A stretch of 64,000 nt of DNA from a virus. Lineage: Duplodnaviria > Heunggongvirae > Uroviricota > Caudoviricetes. This document shows, in pieces, positions 8,041 to 64,000 of this stretch. The stretch lies in the IMG/VR virus record IMGVR_UViG_3300029736_000004; one strand, written 5' to 3'. The notes under the pieces were generated by a model that ran no database searches, was not told the origin of the DNA, and saw only the letters and a program-made list of their open reading frames with translations. The stretch's first letter is position 1. The number at the start of each line of letters is the position of its first letter. Both the position numbers and the translations under genes were made by a program.

Positions 8041-8082
8041 AATGTATACCGACTCTGTTTTGTTCCGAGCGGTAAAATAATA

Positions 8083-8113
8083 TGTTAGAAAATTAAAATC
8101 AACATTCTAACAC
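8083..8113. promoter_or_regulatory. operator-like inverted motif (site A)
   Basis: TGTTAGAAAATT-9 bp-ATTCTAACAC in the intergenic region upstream of the 7045..8040 gene. Confidence 0.5.
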
Positions 8114-12961: not shown

Positions 12962-13579
12962 TTGATCAACCATAGCGGCGATGTAGACAAACCGGGTATT
13001 TCTATGAAGCAAAGCTATTGGGAGAAACAGACACAAAAAGCCCTGCAAAAACTGGCTGATCCGAAATGGCGGGAGGAACAAAGGGCAAAGCGTCTTCAGC
13101 AAGCTCAACGCCTGCAGCAGCGTGCGCGAGAAAAAGCCGCATCGCCTGAATATCGGCAAAAGAAAATTGAAAAAGCGAAGCAATATGAACAGCGAAGAAA
13201 AGAGAAGGCCGCTTCTGCTCCTGTCAAAAAAACTCGCGCGTCACGCGGCCTGAAAGGCAGAACACTCACAGCAGATGAGCGCCGGATACAAACTGCCATC
13301 GGTGCTCTCCCCTGCATTGCCTGCCATATGCACGGACAGCATAGCCCTGTGGTATCCCTGCACCACATCTTCGGAAGAACAGCAGAGAACGCGCATAAAT
13401 ACGTCCTCCCTTTGTGTAAATGGCACCATCAACACGCAGCGCCAGCAGAGATCCGCGAGCAATACCCCTGGTTGGTTCCTGTTCATGCTGATGGAAAAAT
13501 AGGCGGCAAAGCAGATTTCAGGCGGCACAATGCTGATGAAATGACGTTGTATCAGATGGTGACTGAATTAATAAATTAA
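12962..13579 (+). CDS. ref: Ref-like HNH endonuclease (recombination enhancement function family)
   Basis: Basic Lys/Arg-rich N-terminal half plus C-terminal His/Cys HNH-like core (CIACHMHG, SLHHIFGR, LPLCKWHH); TTG or internal ATG start. Confidence 0.5.
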   Translation: MINHSGDVDKPGISMKQSYWEKQTQKALQKLADPKWREEQRAKRLQQAQRLQQRAREKAASPEYRQKKIEKAKQYEQRRKEKAASAPVKKTRASRGLKGRTLTADERRIQTAIGALPCIACHMHGQHSPVVSLHHIFGRTAENAHKYVLPLCKWHHQHAAPAEIREQYPWLVPVHADGKIGGKADFRRHNADEMTLYQMVTELIN

Positions 13580-13590
13580 TTTTCTAACAT
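13578..13590. promoter_or_regulatory. operator-like half-site (site C)
   Basis: ATTTTCTAACA overlapping the ref stop, upstream of the immI-like region. Confidence 0.35.
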
Positions 13591-14079: not shown

Positions 14080-14184
14080 AAAACACACAGTTGCGCCCTG
14101 GCATTATCGTGGGGTATATTTCTACGGCACCTTAGAAAAACGGGTGCCGGGATTGGAACCCCGGATAATGTCAAAGGCGACACA

Positions 14185-14206
14185 GACGCCGAAAGCGTCT
14201 TTTTTT
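14185..14206 (+). terminator. intrinsic terminator-like hairpin
   Basis: GACGC-CGAAA-GCGTC followed by TTTTTTT. Confidence 0.45.
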
Positions 14207-14224
14207 GTGTCATGCCATCGCGCA

Positions 14225-14330
14225 GCCATACGTAGCGTTTAGCTCAGAGATCAATGGTAGTGCTGGCTGGGCTGCCGAAAGGCAGGCCGGTTCCCTTTGA
14301 CGCCGGTAGTTCCAACCCAGTCAGTGCTAC
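14225..14330 (+). ncRNA. c4-like antisense RNA (immI-type), approximate bounds
   Basis: Contains GGTTCC, CCTTTGAC and GTTCCAA complementary to TTGGAACC and GTCAAAGG found upstream (14151-14177) and over the icd RBS (14341-14383); local hairpins. Confidence 0.4.
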
Positions 14331-14391
14331 CGCCATTGAGATTGGAACCTCACGCGGTAGCTCCTTAACTTAGTCAAAGGAGGCTGCCAAT

Positions 14392-14607
14392 ATGGCTACT
14401 ATCCCCACCCCAACTCATTCTGAATTTATCTGGCGTTTCTATTCCTGCCAAAAACACCTCTATATCTGCGTCATGGCTGCTACCGAAGCAGAAGCGCGCT
14501 CATACCTTCCCGAAGAACCCTGCATTTTTGCTGCTCGCTTCACTCTTGATGCGATGGAGATCCTCAATTACTGGAATCTGCCGATGAACTGCGTGGAGGT
14601 GCACTGA
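14392..14607 (+). CDS. icd: Icd-like host cell division inhibitor
   Basis: 71 aa with EFIWRF motif typical of P1 Icd-like proteins; AGGAGG RBS; stop overlaps ant start. Confidence 0.6.
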   Translation: MATIPTPTHSEFIWRFYSCQKHLYICVMAATEAEARSYLPEEPCIFAARFTLDAMEILNYWNLPMNCVEVH

Positions 14608-15548
14608 TGAATCTGTCCATCTCTCAAAAAGCGACAATGACCAGTATTGAAATCGCGGAACTGGTAGGTAAGCGTCATGATAATGTGAAGCGTACCATTG
14701 AAGTATTAACTAAAGGTGGTGTCATTCAATTTCCTCAAATTGAGGAAATTGAAAATAAACAATCAGTTGGCCCTCGTCGATTTTCCAAGGCTTACATCTT
14801 TGAAGGCGAACAAGGCAAGCGTGACAGTATCATTGTCGTTGCGCAGCTCTCTCCGGAATTCACCGCCCGGCTGGTGGACCGCTGGCGCGAACTGGAGAAT
14901 GCCAGGGGACCGTTAAAATCAAAAGCCGAAATCCTGGCTGAAATGGCGCAAATGCATCTTGAGCATGAACGCCGGATCAACGCTGTTAATGCCCAGGTAG
15001 CCGAAGTATCGGCACAAGTGTCCAAAGTCGCTGAAACCGTCGAGCAGATCAAGAAAGGCAACATACCAGAAGGTTACATTGGCTATCGCCAGTTAGCGGC
15101 GAAATGCGGCCTGACTGAAGCCAAATGCCGCAACCTGGTCAACGCTTACCGGATCCCCACAGATACGCATGAGTTTTTGACTCCCGACGGTTTGCTTGCG
15201 CGACGCTCAATTGTGGCCCTGGCCCCCTTCCGGAAAGCCTTTAAGCAGGTGATGTCGGAGGCAGAACCACGTAACAAACGCTGGTATCATCCCAGGATGG
15301 GGCTATTTCAGGCCATTCACCATCCTGTGCCTGAAAGTCCAAAGGCAAACCTGTCGTTGCATACCGCCAGAGAGAAGATTAAAACAGGGTATGCAACCGT
15401 ATGCCGTCGAGCATCCTGGCCTGAAAGTGTCTGGGTATGGCCCGAAAGAGGCTCACGGAAAAACTGGCGCACCATTCGCGACGGCAAGATCTGTGCGATT
15501 GATTTACAGCCAGAAGATGTAGCAGCGACCGACTGGATTGTTAGTTAA
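14607..15548 (+). CDS. ant: antirepressor (Rha/Ant family)
   Basis: N-terminal SIEIAELVGKRHDNVKR Rha-type motif; translationally coupled to icd (TGATG overlap). Confidence 0.65.
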   Translation: MNLSISQKATMTSIEIAELVGKRHDNVKRTIEVLTKGGVIQFPQIEEIENKQSVGPRRFSKAYIFEGEQGKRDSIIVVAQLSPEFTARLVDRWRELENARGPLKSKAEILAEMAQMHLEHERRINAVNAQVAEVSAQVSKVAETVEQIKKGNIPEGYIGYRQLAAKCGLTEAKCRNLVNAYRIPTDTHEFLTPDGLLARRSIVALAPFRKAFKQVMSEAEPRNKRWYHPRMGLFQAIHHPVPESPKANLSLHTAREKIKTGYATVCRRASWPESVWVWPERGSRKNWRTIRDGKICAIDLQPEDVAATDWIVS

Positions 15549-20402: not shown

Positions 20403-20603
20403 GTGTTTGCAAGGACATGAATAGTACACTATTATGATGGTGAAGGAATGGTACATGTTGAACCAAACCTTCGAGGATGCAGCAGACTGAAGAAATTCAG
20501 ACATCCCGCAACCAGCTATCATAACAGGTCAAACCAGTTGTGATACTTGGTCAAGGCAAAGTCCGGTAATGGCGTTCTGAATACCAGAAAATAATTTCTG
20601 GCG

Positions 20604-20634
20604 AAGCCCACCTTAAGGTGGGCTTTGTTATTTT
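20604..20634. terminator. terminator-like hairpin
   Basis: AAGCCCACC-TTAA-GGTGGGCTT followed by T-rich tract. Confidence 0.4.
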
Positions 20635-32625: not shown

Positions 32626-32642
32626 TTGTTCTAATGTTTTAT

Positions 32643-32704
32643 GTTAGAAAATTAAGATTAAAACATACTAACACAAGATTGTTAACGAAAATTATTTTTC
32701 TAAT
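32643..32704. promoter_or_regulatory. operator-like motifs (site E) in a divergent promoter region
   Basis: TGTTAGAAAATT-11 bp-ATACTAACAC plus TTTTCTAATG at 32695. Confidence 0.5.
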
Positions 32705-59534: not shown

Positions 59535-61220
59535 ATGGCAACGAAAGACAAAAACAAGGGCTTTCTGTCGGCATTGAAGAAAGCCTTCAGCGGTGGTGAT
59601 GTTACGCCTGCCGATCCGGTCGTATTTGCGAGCGGGCATAGCGTCGTTGCTCGTTCTGGCCTGTCCGCCTTGCGTCCTGGCATCCTGGGGAGCAATAGCG
59701 ATGGCATGACAAGCGCGGCGGATACTGTATCTATATCGGCAGAATTACCGAGTGACCGCCTGCAAAAATACAACATACTGGAGACGATGGCGAAAAGTCC
59801 GACTATCTCCACAGCATTAAACATTCACATTGCGCATTCTCTGGCTCCATCAAAAAAAACAGGCCTCGCATTTATTCTCTCTCCGAAAAATGGGGCGGAT
59901 AAGGAGGCTGTAAGTCGATGTGAGGAATTGACCGCTGATTTAAGCTCAATGATTAATGATGGCCTGCCATCGTGGGCCATGATCATGGCTATTTTCGGTG
60001 TGTCGTATATCCGTCCATATGCAGAGCAAGGGAAGGGGATAACTGGAATTGAGTCGAGCTATTACACGCTCCCTCATTTCGTTCAGGAGTTTTATCGCGG
60101 TAGCCAACTTGTCGGATTCAGCGGTGATTATATTCTGGATACGCATACTTTGCGCAGAGTTATAACCGAACCGTGGAATCTGGTTTCCATGAAAAACCCG
60201 TACTGGATGCCTCAGCATAAAGTAATGCCAGTAACTTACGGCACTAACGGCTATTCCTTGCTTAGTGAACAGCAGGACAAGCCGTTAATGGAGACGCAGA
60301 ACTACGGTACGTCGTTTCTTGAATACAGTTATGAACCCTACCTGAATTTATGTGCCGCGCTTGCTGCGCTGAAAGCAACGCGAAACAACGCTGCAAAAAT
60401 TGATCGCCTGATTGCACTCACAACGAACACGATAGATCCGGTAAACGCGGCGAATTATACGCGCGGGGTCAGCCAGGCACTGAAGCGTCATAGCGACCTC
60501 GTAGCGCAACGGTCGATTAATTCTAATGCTCTCCCATCTGTACTTAACCATCTGATACCCGTCATGGGGGATGGGAAGAACGGGATCACCATTGATACGC
60601 AATCTATACCCGCAGATATCAGTGGTATCGAAGACGTTATGTTTCATCTCCGACAGCTCGCGGCAAGCCTCGGTATTGACGCAACAATGCTTGGCTGGGC
60701 TGATCAGATGAGTGGTGGACTTGGAGAAGGCGGTTGGCAGCAAACAGCTATCCAGGCCGCCTTACGCGCGAACTGGATCAGACAGGCCGCCCAGCGGACT
60801 ATTTATCGGCTTCATGACATTCACCTCGCTTATAAATACGGGAAGGTTTACACCGAAAAAAACCGTCCTTATGACGTGCAATTCAACTCAATGAACACAG
60901 CTATCCAGGAAGAGGAAAACCGAGAGCTGGATGCGCGCGCCAACTTCGTAGCTGTCATCTCGCAAATAATGGACCAGATCCAGAACAACCCGAAACTGGC
61001 GGGTAGCGACGCGTTTATGCGTTATCTGTTCACCGAACAGCTTCGTATCGACGATGACACTCTCAACGTAATGATCAAAGAGTTTAAGGCGAATGAATCA
61101 GAGCAAAACAACGAGCATGGTATGTACGAATCCGCGCCGTTGTCGTCCGGTGACGATCCGGAAAACTGGACGCAAGAACAATTAATCAACTTTGCAAAAT
61201 TTGTGATGAGCAATAATTAA
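59535..61220 (+). CDS. putative portal protein (assignment weak)
   Basis: 561 aa, precedes a protease/scaffold-like gene; no Walker motif. Confidence 0.3.
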   Translation: MATKDKNKGFLSALKKAFSGGDVTPADPVVFASGHSVVARSGLSALRPGILGSNSDGMTSAADTVSISAELPSDRLQKYNILETMAKSPTISTALNIHIAHSLAPSKKTGLAFILSPKNGADKEAVSRCEELTADLSSMINDGLPSWAMIMAIFGVSYIRPYAEQGKGITGIESSYYTLPHFVQEFYRGSQLVGFSGDYILDTHTLRRVITEPWNLVSMKNPYWMPQHKVMPVTYGTNGYSLLSEQQDKPLMETQNYGTSFLEYSYEPYLNLCAALAALKATRNNAAKIDRLIALTTNTIDPVNAANYTRGVSQALKRHSDLVAQRSINSNALPSVLNHLIPVMGDGKNGITIDTQSIPADISGIEDVMFHLRQLAASLGIDATMLGWADQMSGGLGEGGWQQTAIQAALRANWIRQAAQRTIYRLHDIHLAYKYGKVYTEKNRPYDVQFNSMNTAIQEEENRELDARANFVAVISQIMDQIQNNPKLAGSDAFMRYLFTEQLRIDDDTLNVMIKEFKANESEQNNEHGMYESAPLSSGDDPENWTQEQLINFAKFVMSNN

Positions 61221-61233
61221 CCGGAGGGAAATA

Positions 61234-62232
61234 ATGCAATCACTGAATACCGTTACGGATCGCTTCTCCCTGGTAGAGAAAATCCGCAAACACACACCTC
61301 AGAACAATCGCAATTACGTTATCCAGTCGGTACGAGACACATTCAACTCGCCAGAAACAAAAGAGCGTATCGCACTGGGTGAGATGTATGGTTATTACGG
61401 TCATGGTCGCCGGGCGATGCACTATAACAAAACGAAAAGCCTGGACTTGCCGGAAGTCTCTGTTGTGATGGTAGATGGGAAGCCTGTTGTATTGGAGAAC
61501 GTGCCGTCAAACAGGACTATCGACATTTCAATTGACGACAACGGCATTGTTACCCATACACAGGAAATACTGGATACGGACACCGGACGTATTGTTCAGG
61601 GTATGATTAATTCTGGCGCAGGTGGTTGGTCATGGGCTACATCTGGTCCAGATTACTCTGTATCCCTGGTAAAGTCTTTTCACGGTTTTGATTACGTAAC
61701 TGTGCCTAACTATATCAGCCTCGACAAGAAAAGCCTGATGCTTGAATCAGCAGAAGAACGCGACGCGGCGATTCATGCGGCACTTATCGAACAAGGTTTT
61801 ACCGATAATGCTGCTACGGATCTGGTTCACCACTTTTCAGCAATGAAGAGTCAGCAAGCCATATTCGAATCAGCACAACGTGAAGTTCTGGAGTCGGAAC
61901 TGATACATCTTGAAGTGGAAAATATGCAGCTTCGCGACAAACTACGCGACCAGGCCGCGATGATGGAAAGCCAGGGGGAGAACGCGAAGAAATGCCGCCG
62001 TATTTTGCGTGATGCTATCCAGGAAATGCCTGTTTTTATCAGCGCAGAACAGCGCCGGGCGCTCTGCCGTATGCAGTCAGAGGATGATGCACGCATTGTC
62101 GCAGCGATGCTTGAATCCCTGGGGGCTAATGCCACTTATGGTCTGCCAATATCAGCCAATAAACAACAAGAAATACCGGTGAAAGAGAACAAGACGGTGA
62201 CTCCGCTGATCTTTGTGTCTAAGAGGATGTGA
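61234..62232 (+). CDS. putative head maturation/scaffold protein (assignment weak)
   Basis: 332 aa with coiled-coil C-terminus; GGAGGG RBS. Confidence 0.3.
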   Translation: MQSLNTVTDRFSLVEKIRKHTPQNNRNYVIQSVRDTFNSPETKERIALGEMYGYYGHGRRAMHYNKTKSLDLPEVSVVMVDGKPVVLENVPSNRTIDISIDDNGIVTHTQEILDTDTGRIVQGMINSGAGGWSWATSGPDYSVSLVKSFHGFDYVTVPNYISLDKKSLMLESAEERDAAIHAALIEQGFTDNAATDLVHHFSAMKSQQAIFESAQREVLESELIHLEVENMQLRDKLRDQAAMMESQGENAKKCRRILRDAIQEMPVFISAEQRRALCRMQSEDDARIVAAMLESLGANATYGLPISANKQQEIPVKENKTVTPLIFVSKRM

Positions 62233-62248
62233 GCTAAAAGATAGCTTA

Positions 62249-62262
62249 ATTTTCTAACACAG
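62249..62262. promoter_or_regulatory. operator-like half-site (site F)
   Basis: ATTTTCTAACACAG, followed by a short palindrome ACAGTGT-N8-ACACTGT. Confidence 0.4.
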
Positions 62263-62348
62263 TGTGTTTTTATACACTGTTGATCCGACGGCGCGTGATC
62301 GAGTAGGATCGCGGTCACTGCTCCGGTAGCGACTGCCAAAAAAGCAAA

Positions 62349-62370
62349 AGCCGCTGAGAAGCGGCTTTTG
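62349..62370 (+). terminator. intrinsic terminator
   Basis: AGCCGCT-GAGA-AGCGGCT followed by TTTTG. Confidence 0.5.
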
Positions 62371-62430
62371 GGTGTATAAATCTCCGGACATAGATTTATA
62401 CGGTAGATAGATTTTTCACGGTACTATCTG

Positions 62431-63390
62431 GTGAGTATTTTAAATTCAGTTTCAGTAACTTTCAACACTTCTGAGTATAAAAACAACACTGAATACCACA
62501 AAAAAATCAAAGGTCATCAGTTGAGTTTTTTTGCTCGTCATAGCGGTTTTCTTTCCCCTTCACATAGCGCCATTATTGCCGAGTTCGCCAACCTGGCAGG
62601 AGCTACCGATGAATACATGATCCGTCGCTCATATGCTGATATGTCCGAGATTACAGGACGCAGTATTTCTACTGTGCGCCGGGCATTTACCGAAGCGACG
62701 AAGTGCGGAATGCTTGTTAAGCAGCATCAGGTAGCGAATAACAATGCTCAGGTGTGTAACGTGTACCGGTTTACAACACAATTTCTCCACTTCATTCATG
62801 TAGCAATGGAGATAGGGAGTAAGCAGGGCATCAAATTTGCCAACGCCACAAAACTGGTTAAGCAGTTGATTTCAAAGGTTCGTTATTTTTTTGAAACTGG
62901 GAACCCCCTGTTCAAATTGAACAAGTCCCCCCATGTTCAAAATGAACAGCCAATAGAAAATAAGAGTCACTCTATAGCCAAAAGAAGAGAAAGATCATGC
63001 GCGGTTCAGCCAAAGGCTTCACCAGCAGATAGTTCTCAAGCGGATAATGGCTTGCTGGATAAAAAAACAGTAATCAGGGAAGAACATACCAACCACTGCC
63101 TGGCGGCAGCAAAAGCGAGAGCTGCAAAGCGTCGTTCAGACGAGGGGTACGCAAAACGGCAGGCTCTGTATCGTACCGCTGAAAAACTGGCAAAAAAATT
63201 TGCATGGTTACGTAGTGCTACCACAGTGAATAAGCCCAAACGATCCAGCGCCCTGGATTTCTCTATGGATTATTCTGCTTCCCAGGGATGTGCAACCATC
63301 AATGAAGCATTTGACCTGATGAAACAGCGTGGCTATCGGTCTGAATTTGACCGGGAAGACTGGTCAATTCCGGAGGGCTTTCGGGGATGA
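62431..63390 (+). CDS. HTH-containing protein, possibly RepL-like lytic replication initiator
   Basis: EITGRSISTVRRAFTEATKCGML HTH; preceded by 10-bp inverted repeat GTATAAATCT/AGATTTATAC (62376-62403); start uncertain. Confidence 0.3.
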   Translation: MSILNSVSVTFNTSEYKNNTEYHKKIKGHQLSFFARHSGFLSPSHSAIIAEFANLAGATDEYMIRRSYADMSEITGRSISTVRRAFTEATKCGMLVKQHQVANNNAQVCNVYRFTTQFLHFIHVAMEIGSKQGIKFANATKLVKQLISKVRYFFETGNPLFKLNKSPHVQNEQPIENKSHSIAKRRERSCAVQPKASPADSSQADNGLLDKKTVIREEHTNHCLAAAKARAAKRRSDEGYAKRQALYRTAEKLAKKFAWLRSATTVNKPKRSSALDFSMDYSASQGCATINEAFDLMKQRGYRSEFDREDWSIPEGFRG

Positions 63391-63448
63391 TGTTGCGATT
63401 GACTGTACAATAACCGTGCGGCGGGAATTTCATCGCTCGAAAATGTAT

Positions 63449-63546
63449 GTTAGAAAATTAAATTGATGTTTCTAATCAAGAATGTATGATTTATATCGTC
63501 ACTAAAAAACAGCATCTGATAAAAATTCTGTTGATCTTTCTAATGT
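63449..63546. promoter_or_regulatory. operator-like motifs (site G) upstream of the second immI-like module
   Basis: TGTTAGAAAATT-9 bp-TTTCTAATCA and TTTCTAATG at 63538. Confidence 0.5.
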
Positions 63547-63679
63547 TCAGGCTTATATTCATGCCGTCGTAGCAAATTCTGCGACCGGGTTTAGCAGCCT
63601 GAATGTTAGTGCGGACAACCGCAGATATCCGATATTGCGGTATTTTTGTGTCCGTAAAACCGCGTTACGCCCAAATTAT

Positions 63680-63745
63680 GGTGGGGCGTGATGGGGAGGC
63701 TTCGGCCTGCTGGTTTCACTAACGCCAGTCTGCTAACCCCGTCAC
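63680..63745 (+). ncRNA. second c4-like antisense RNA (approximate bounds)
   Basis: CACTAAC and CTGCTAA complementary to GTTAGTG and TTAGCAG found at 63591-63611 and over the icd RBS at 63760-63798; GGC-TTCG-GCC tetraloop hairpin. Confidence 0.4.
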
Positions 63746-63806
63746 GTCCTGCCACCTGTTTAGCAGCGGGTAGCAGGTTGTTAAACCTGTTAGTGAGGCC
63801 GTAACT

Positions 63807-64000
63807 ATGGTTAATGCCAATCCTTGCTCACGTCCAGAATTCATCTGGCGTTTTCACTCCCTGCAAAAACACTGCGATCACTTCGCAATTGCCGCAACTG
63901 AAAAAGAAGCCCGTTCTCTGATCCCGGATCAGTATGGCGTTCTCACTGGTCGTTTCTCTACTTCCCCACAACCAAACACCAATCCCTGGTATCGCAATAT
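63807..64000 (+). CDS. icd: second Icd-like protein (3-prime partial at window end)
   Basis: MVNANPCSRPEFIWRFHSLQKH... shares the EFIWRF core with the first Icd-like protein; GAGG RBS. Confidence 0.55.
   Translation, partial: MVNANPCSRPEFIWRFHSLQKHCDHFAIAATEKEARSLIPDQYGVLTGRFSTSPQPNTNPWYRN

Follow-up and report, generated by a model that had tools for sequence, protein, structure and literature searches.

A probable P1-type immI switch with a hybrid recognition address in a D6-like phage-plasmid

Why would a replicon that already carries one c4/icd immunity module carry a second, with recognition words of its own? The question arises from the end of a 64,000-nucleotide stretch of viral DNA (IMG/VR record IMGVR_UViG_3300029736_000004; the whole stretch is referred to below as the window), where the initial annotation placed a second, sequence-distinct module and took it to imply either two independent antirepressor circuits or an immunity module captured from a heteroimmune relative. 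Our analysis indicates that the region between 63447 and 64000 belongs to a D6-like phage-plasmid and is probably its canonical immI switch, of the P1 type. The c4 switch was recognisable from the raw sequence but does not represent a new kind of element: the two-switch system is of a known kind, D6-like phage-plasmids normally carry both switches, and this is already on record. The parts that may be new are the allele combinatorics, the stacking of modules and the reading of isrK as a decoy.

The mechanism of P1 immI is established and comprises co-transcription, processing of the C4 RNA, masking of the icd ribosome-binding site and the coupled shut-off of the anti-repressor. It reportedly goes back to work by Citron and Schuster in 1990, Biere and colleagues in 1992, and Hartmann and colleagues and Heinrich and colleagues, both in 1995. 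In the temperate phage P22, immI is likewise a secondary immunity region, where the sar antisense RNA keeps ant off; sar differs, however, in being cis-encoded and fully complementary, without a two-word trans address, an icd gene or the Rfam C4 structure.

Anatomy of the terminal module

Sequence similarity identifies the window as part of a D6-like phage-plasmid. The 3 kb from 61000 to 64000 shared 90.7% identity with phage D6 and 98–99% with circular, non-mobilizable plasmids of ∼90 kb from E. coli and E. marmotae; a second D6 match to the window had 88.8% identity over 2.2 kb. Portal, protease and repL genes lie upstream of the terminal module in a D6-specific neighbourhood, and the order portal, protease, repL, c4, icd and Rha/Roi-type anti-repressor was shared by D6 (MF356679), NZ_LR890273.1 and pYU39_89. 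Identity to the D6-like plasmids reached 99.3%, and these carry the same isrK-type module elsewhere on the replicon. Within 61000–64000, only positions 63531–63918 matched P1 and P7, at ∼91% (90–92%). This segment spans the −35 element of a P51b-like promoter to ∼110 nt inside icd, and megablast similarity to both phages begins exactly at 63531. By alignment and the P1 annotation, every feature of P1 immI was in register with the window (Table 1). An sroH RNA match (20441–20626, plus strand, 113 bits against a cutoff of 80; Rfam) was also observed on the phage-plasmid backbone.

Table 1. Features of the two c4/icd modules and copies of the operator-like motif, in window coordinates
Feature	Position	Strand	Evidence or remark
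ATGTTAGAAAATTAA copy	8082–8096	+	between ORFs
ATGTTAGAAAATTAA copy	13576–13590	−	abuts 3' end of ref-like ORF (12962–13579)
isrK-type module	14127–15548	+	Rfam, PHROGs, NCBIfam and ORF evidence; words at 14152, 14170, 14294, 14309, 14341 and 14373
isrK, with a1 ATTGGAAC and b1 GTCAAAGG	14127–14205	+	Rfam, 62.7 bits
C4 of isrK-type module, with b' CCTTTGAC and a' GTTCCAAC	14250–14337	+	Rfam, 77.1 bits
a2/b2 of isrK-type module	14341, 14373	+	on ribosome-binding site
icd-like ORF of isrK-type module, 71 aa	14392–14607	+	NCBIfam
Rha-type anti-repressor of isrK-type module, 313 aa	14607–15548	+	protein family matches
ATGTTAGAAAATTAA copy	32641–32655	+	between ORFs
ATGTTAGAAAATTAA copy	62246–62260	−	1 mismatch; before repL
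ATGTTAGAAAATTAA copy	63447–63461	+	before c4 promoters, overlaps upstream −35
Candidate D6-type C1 operator ATGTTAGAAAATTAAATTGA	63447–63466	+	overlaps −35 of upstream promoter; position of Op51/Oc4 in P1
Upstream sigma-70-like promoter, TTGATG-16-TATGAT	63463–63490	+	consensus scan; putative positional analogue of P1 P51a (P2c4)
Downstream sigma-70-like promoter, TTGATC-17-TATATT	63531–63559	+	consensus scan; base-for-base alignment with P1 P51b (P1c4)
c4-a1b1 leader element	63553–63605	+	Rfam RF03163
a1 TTTAGCAG	63590–63597	+	upstream target copy
b1 GTTAGTG	63605–63611	+	upstream target copy
C4 antisense RNA, predicted mature 77 nt	63680–63756	+	ends transferred from P1 c4 annotation by alignment
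GGC-UUCG-GCC hairpin (GGCTTCGGCC)	63698–63707	+	within C4 RNA
b' CACUAAC	63717–63723	+	in C4 hairpin loop
a' CUGCUAA	63730–63736	+	in C4 unpaired linker
Regulated targets a2/b2	63759–63798	+	word search, own-c4 duplex, co-variation
a2 TTTAGCAG	63759–63766	+	regulated target
b2 GTTAGTG	63789–63795	+	runs into icd Shine-Dalgarno GAGG (63795–63798)
icd-like ORF, ATG at 63807	63807–64000	+	first 64 of 74 codons before window end; NCBIfam NF033153

Positions 63553–64000 hold a complete P1/P7-type immI leader (c4-a1b1, C4 RNA, a2/b2 and an icd-like ORF), and the module is a canonical P1-like immI, that at 14127 being of the isrK type. Both RNA elements of the leader were detected with Rfam covariance models: c4-a1b1 scored 53.9 bits against a gathering cutoff of 46.7 (E = 8e-11), and C4 (RF01695) matched over its full length, 1–87, at 63674–63759 with 70 bits against 45 (E = 1.4e-11). 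The 77-nt C4 RNA has a predicted fold of −45.3 kcal/mol (z = −5.1), in which the second hairpin presents b' exactly in its 9-nt loop, and the 7-nt unpaired linker consists exactly of a', the same loop and linker geometry as in the C4 RNA of P1.

The words themselves were found largely as first described. TTAGCAG occurs at 63591 and 63760 (a1 and a2), GTTAGTG at 63605 and 63789 (b1 and b2), and the complementary CACTAAC and CTGCTAA at 63717 (b') and 63730 (a'); the block of complementary words begins where it had been placed but ends at 63736, not at 63737. The GGC-TTCG-GCC tetraloop hairpin is present at 63698, and the Icd-like ORF opens at its ATG behind a GAGG, with a match to NF033153. The reported overlap of b2 with this GAGG amounts to one shared base of the word, and predicted pairing with c4 continues over the GAGG by one A-U pair and two G-U pairs, giving a 9-pair duplex. 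Single 7-mers were not significant, with 3–9 occurrences each on the plus strand of the window; taken together with the Rfam matches, the fold and the duplexes compared against shuffled targets, however, the ensemble is not a product of chance.

Comparison with known c4 RNAs, as the initial annotation had proposed, placed the terminal RNA in the Rfam C4 family with the a-word of P7 and the b-word of P1. Relative to P1 immI (NC_005856, 48.1–49.7 kb), the order of parts is the same, including the operator-overlapped promoter, the second promoter, the 77-nt C4 and the coupled gene, and nucleotide identity is ∼90.5% from the P51b-like promoter into icd. The b words are identical in the two (GTTAGTG / CACTAAC), but the a words of P1 are TTGACAG / CTGTCAA whereas those of the window are the P7-type TTAGCAG / CTGCTAA. 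P1 immI lies before kilA-repL, carries the P1 C1 operator and is followed by ant1/ant2; the terminal module lies after repL, lacks that operator and, in its relatives, precedes a Rha/Roi-type gene unrelated to Ant1/2. P7 immI (AF503408, 50.9–52.4 kb) shares 91.3% leader identity, and its a words and linked flanking bases are identical to those of the window, but its b words (GATTGTG / CACAATC) differ; otherwise it departs from the window as P1 does, in operator, 3' half of icd and type of anti-repressor. The resulting address is a hybrid that differs from those of D6, P1 and P7. D6 pairs a P1-type a-word with its own b-word (ACTTACG / CGTAAGT), and the words of its isrK-type module are also unlike those of the window; heteroimmunity between D6 and the element of the window is accordingly predicted for both modules. 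Among the close plasmid relatives, NZ_LR890273.1 has a c4 allele identical to that of the window, and the E. marmotae plasmid, 99.3% identical, has both P1 words.

By analogy with P1, the two tandem promoters would give rise to one RNA carrying a1/b1, c4, a2/b2, icd and the anti-repressor, with the candidate C1 operator overlapping the upstream promoter of this immI transcript. The 77-nt C4 would be cut out of the transcript, a step carried out in P1 by RNase P, and its loop (b') and linker (a') would then pair with b2 and a2, covering the icd ribosome-binding site. Translation of icd would be blocked and the coupled downstream anti-repressor kept off, as in P1; in a lysogen the anti-repressor would be silent and a C1-type repressor would remain active. 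What the sequences themselves establish is the anatomy, the membership in the RNA families, the complementarity with its co-variation, and the conservation; processing of C4, repression, anti-repressor activity and the binding of C1 to the operator-like site are inferred.

Two modules on one replicon

The first module identified in the window also proved to be real, with Rfam matches to isrK and C4 and its own words in place (Table 1). Its words (a ATTGGAAC, b GTCAAAGG) are unrelated to those of the terminal module. Rfam, word and duplex evidence likewise bore out the claim that the replicon holds a further complete c4/icd module whose recognition words are different, and both modules occur ∼47.5 kb apart in the same plasmid records, e.g. 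the circular D6-like NZ_LR890273.1.

The initial annotation further held that the two antisense specificities do not cross-react, and the predicted duplexes agree. The terminal c4 RNA was predicted to pair with its own a2/b2 target at −34.8 kcal/mol, compared with −14.9 kcal/mol for the target of the isrK-type module, while the c4 RNA of the isrK-type module gave −29.3 kcal/mol with its own target and −16.3 kcal/mol with the terminal one. The own-target duplexes beat all of 300 shuffled targets (0/300 as good), and the cross pairings were no better than shuffled targets. On these predictions, the reading of two independently addressed switches on one replicon is sound. The anti-repressors of the two modules are paralogues with 68% identity, and their Icd proteins are 45% identical; because the word addresses are unrelated, independent regulation would be expected, with each switch gating one anti-repressor paralogue.

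This arrangement had been put forward as not previously described, which does not hold. The GenBank record of D6 annotates both icd/anti-repressor pairs (orf19/18 and orf83/82), and Rfam detects both C4 RNAs in the same phage. A second antisense-RNA/icd region was called noteworthy by Silva et al. 2019 (PMC6799933). We also observed that the P1-like phage RCS47 (FO818745, 103.4–105.0 kb) carries an unannotated isrK and C4 pair before an annotated extra 'ant'; this isrK-C4-icd-ant module lies between pacB and c1, in addition to the canonical immI of that phage, so that P1-like phages can bear both c4 types as well.

The isrK-type module resembles a locus known from Salmonella. In the isrK-orf45-anrP locus of Gifsy-1, IsrK supplied in trans activates translation of the anti-repressor (Hershko-Shalev et al. 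2016, PMC4825925), and the terms 'icd' and 'phage P1' are absent from that paper. Both loci have an isrK RNA with a terminator, a C4-like region reached by read-through, and a small ORF translationally coupled to a Rha-type anti-repressor. The terminal module differs from the Gifsy-1 locus in having a c4-a1b1 leader and no isrK. Across 74 loci related to the isrK-type module, the isrK words co-varied with the C4 words in 72, with a mismatch in the isrK a-word in the other 2, and 2 a-types and 2 b-types were seen in all 4 combinations. Such co-variation suggests that isrK RNA may serve as an a1/b1 decoy for the neighbouring C4; if so, the published activation of Gifsy-1 AnrP by IsrK would be titration of a C4 repressor. 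Literature searches for a link between isrK and c4, or for c4 allele diversity, returned nothing explicit.

Control region and anti-repressor gene

The control region ahead of the terminal module contains the 20-mer ATGTTAGAAAATTAAATTGA, of which the window holds 4 matches where 0.02 would be expected. Its 15-mer core, ATGTTAGAAAATTAA, occurs in 5 copies with at most 1 mismatch, placed relative to ORFs by reading of the ORF lists (Table 1). Copies in D6 were found at L127:198, L127:10318 and L128:1726, and D6 c1 is likewise preceded by the motif; the homologue of this gene sits on a part of the replicon outside the window. Among the matches listed, the operator position was occupied by a ATGTTAGAAAATTAA-type motif in 17/17 loci of the Rha class and by the P1 operator in 79/79 loci of the P1-Ant class. 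We consider ATGTTAGAAAATTAA likely to be a D6-type C1 operator. No site in the window matched the P1-type C1 operator ATTGCTCTAATAAATTT when up to 3 mismatches were allowed, and tblastn with the P1 C1 and Coi proteins gave no match in the window.

Both promoter-like sites start with the same 14-mer, TTGAT(G/C)TTTCTAAT (63463–63476 and 63531–63544), a direct repeat made up of the −35 hexamer and the first 8 bases of the spacer. The shorter TTTCTAAT was considered as an operator core, but its 5 matches against 2.5 expected were not significant and the longer ATGTTAGAAAATTAA motif was preferred.

The terminal icd-like ORF matched NCBIfam NF033153 with 40.5 bits against a cutoff of 25; Pfam gave no matches for the Icd ORFs, although NCBIfam and PHROGs did. 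Its product is 61% identical at the amino acid level to P1 Icd, with the 3' half of the gene diverging. As the window ends after 64 codons of icd, the gene that follows is deduced from relatives. Whether an ant gene lies downstream had been raised as a check on the module, with its absence to count as a refutation; an anti-repressor-type gene followed icd in every complete relative examined. In these relatives icd is coupled by a TGATG overlap to a gene of Rha/Roi anti-repressor type; in NZ_LR890273.1, whose sequence is 98.6% identical, icd encodes 74 aa and is followed, with a one-base overlap, by a 235-aa Rha-family gene. The full 74-aa icd was present in 17/17 Rha-class loci among the matches listed.

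The downstream Rha/Roi-type gene is annotated in D6 as a 'putative anti-repressor', and the protein of the relatives matched PHROG 63, 'anti-repressor Ant' (1.9e-47). Its Pfam Rha score of 21.7 was below the curated cutoff of 29.9, and no significant similarity to P1 Ant1 was found (E = 0.13). Anti-repressor activity is accordingly a family annotation, and the protein is best described as a putative anti-repressor. By analogy with P1, the terminal module would work like immI but with another class of anti-repressor.

The closest short relative (L007, IMG/VR 3300013958_000038), 99.94% identical to positions 62400–64000, shows a departure from this pattern. Just past the equivalent of position 64000, at L007:5002–5943, it encodes a mosaic anti-repressor of 313 aa instead of 235 aa, with at least 4 switches between sequence like that of the terminal module and sequence like that of the isrK-type module, followed by the flanking genes of the latter. 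The mosaic reflects either gene conversion between paralogues or a chimera of metagenome assembly, and an anti-repressor-type gene follows icd in this locus too, whichever its origin. Given the mosaic and these flanks, L007 was rejected as sole proxy for the sequence beyond 64000.

Address words among phage-plasmids

When IMG/VR was scanned for the pattern of the conserved C4 core, at least 120 loci were found, and the addition of the reference loci and the window gave 126 copies; the survey counts are of loci, not of independent lineages. Among the matches listed, P1-type c4 included at least 2 a-types and at least 7 b-types in at least 12 combinations. In all copies with both flanks among these matches (119/119), a' was the exact reverse complement of a1 and of a2, as b' was of b1 and of b2; one copy failed the Shine-Dalgarno filter only and was concordant by eye. 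The allele of the window was present in 12 of the 126 copies among the matches listed, and preceded both P1-type Ant and Rha-type genes.

The survey bears on the suggestion that the terminal module was captured, namely that a c4/icd cassette was acquired recently from a heteroimmune P1/P7-like relative and is accessory to the isrK-type switch. Exchange with elements of the P1 family clearly occurs, as the b-word is P1-like, and the a-word is P7-like together with several linked bases. The similarity to P1 and P7 is confined to the segment described above, with flanks that do not share it, and the same word alleles precede genes of both anti-repressor classes, points in favour of a capture. Recent capture of the whole module is nevertheless unlikely and was not supported: throughout the D6-like family it is a fixed component, with a position (repL, c4, icd, Rha gene) shared by D6 and ∼110 plasmid records, and its Rha-class loci always carry the operator-like motif of that family rather than the P1 operator (17/17 versus 79/79 among the matches listed, as given above). 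Furthermore, its anti-repressor is a paralogue of that of the isrK-type module and not of P1 Ant. The word order a1-b1-b'-a'-a2-b2 means that a P7/P1 hybrid would need at least 3 exchanges or patchwise conversion, not one crossover. It is apparently the short address words, or patches of the leader, that move, and not the module as a whole.

Carriage of more than one module was common. Among the 38 contigs of 75 kb or more that were sampled, 15 carried both c4 types, and seven sampled contigs had 2–4 P1-type modules, never with the same address. Stacking of 2–4 differently addressed modules per replicon is thus common in this sample. The seven are P1-like contigs of ∼100 kb with separate modules: 2703718869_000013 (modules L020, L055, L103 and L125), 651053023_000001 (L017, L079 and L108) and five others. 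A P1-type ant gene follows each of the four copies on 2703718869_000013, as it does both copies on each of three other contigs, five copies of the multi-module contigs being on loci too short for classing.

These observations raise the possibility that the a/b words form a combinatorial two-word address common to P1-like and D6-like phage-plasmids, a tentative reading toward which we remain slightly sceptical. No description of it was found in the searchable literature, a scope to which the D6 genome paper does not belong. If true, co-circulating phage-plasmids would form a network of partial cross-immunity and immunity escape. Confirmation of the pattern would help in predicting which phage-plasmids can co-reside or induce one another, many such elements carrying resistance genes in E. 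coli and Salmonella, and the address words would constitute a natural set of orthogonal antisense regulators.

A shared pool of alleles also invites the view that the terminal c4 is mainly directed at P1-like phage-plasmids with the same a/b address, whether superinfecting or co-resident, whose anti-repressors it would silence, its own icd/anti-repressor pair being secondary. Targets of this kind exist, as the allele of the window precedes P1-type Ant1/2 genes in 8 sampled loci and one allele pool is common to P1-type and D6-type elements. We regard such a primary role as very improbable: all sampled D6-like loci retain their own perfectly matched targets and an intact, coupled icd/anti-repressor pair, which makes self-regulation at least a co-equal role.

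The canonical immI reading is kept for the terminal module, and the view that it is a non-functional, decaying duplicate carried along by hitch-hiking is already disfavoured and scarcely credible: the window does hold only 64 icd codons and no anti-repressor after them, and one close relative has the scrambled mosaic gene, but the RNA retains Rfam-level structure, three-way word matches were concordant in all 119 copies across 12 alleles among the matches listed, icd is intact in the Rha-class loci as noted above, and the region is ∼90% conserved with D6.
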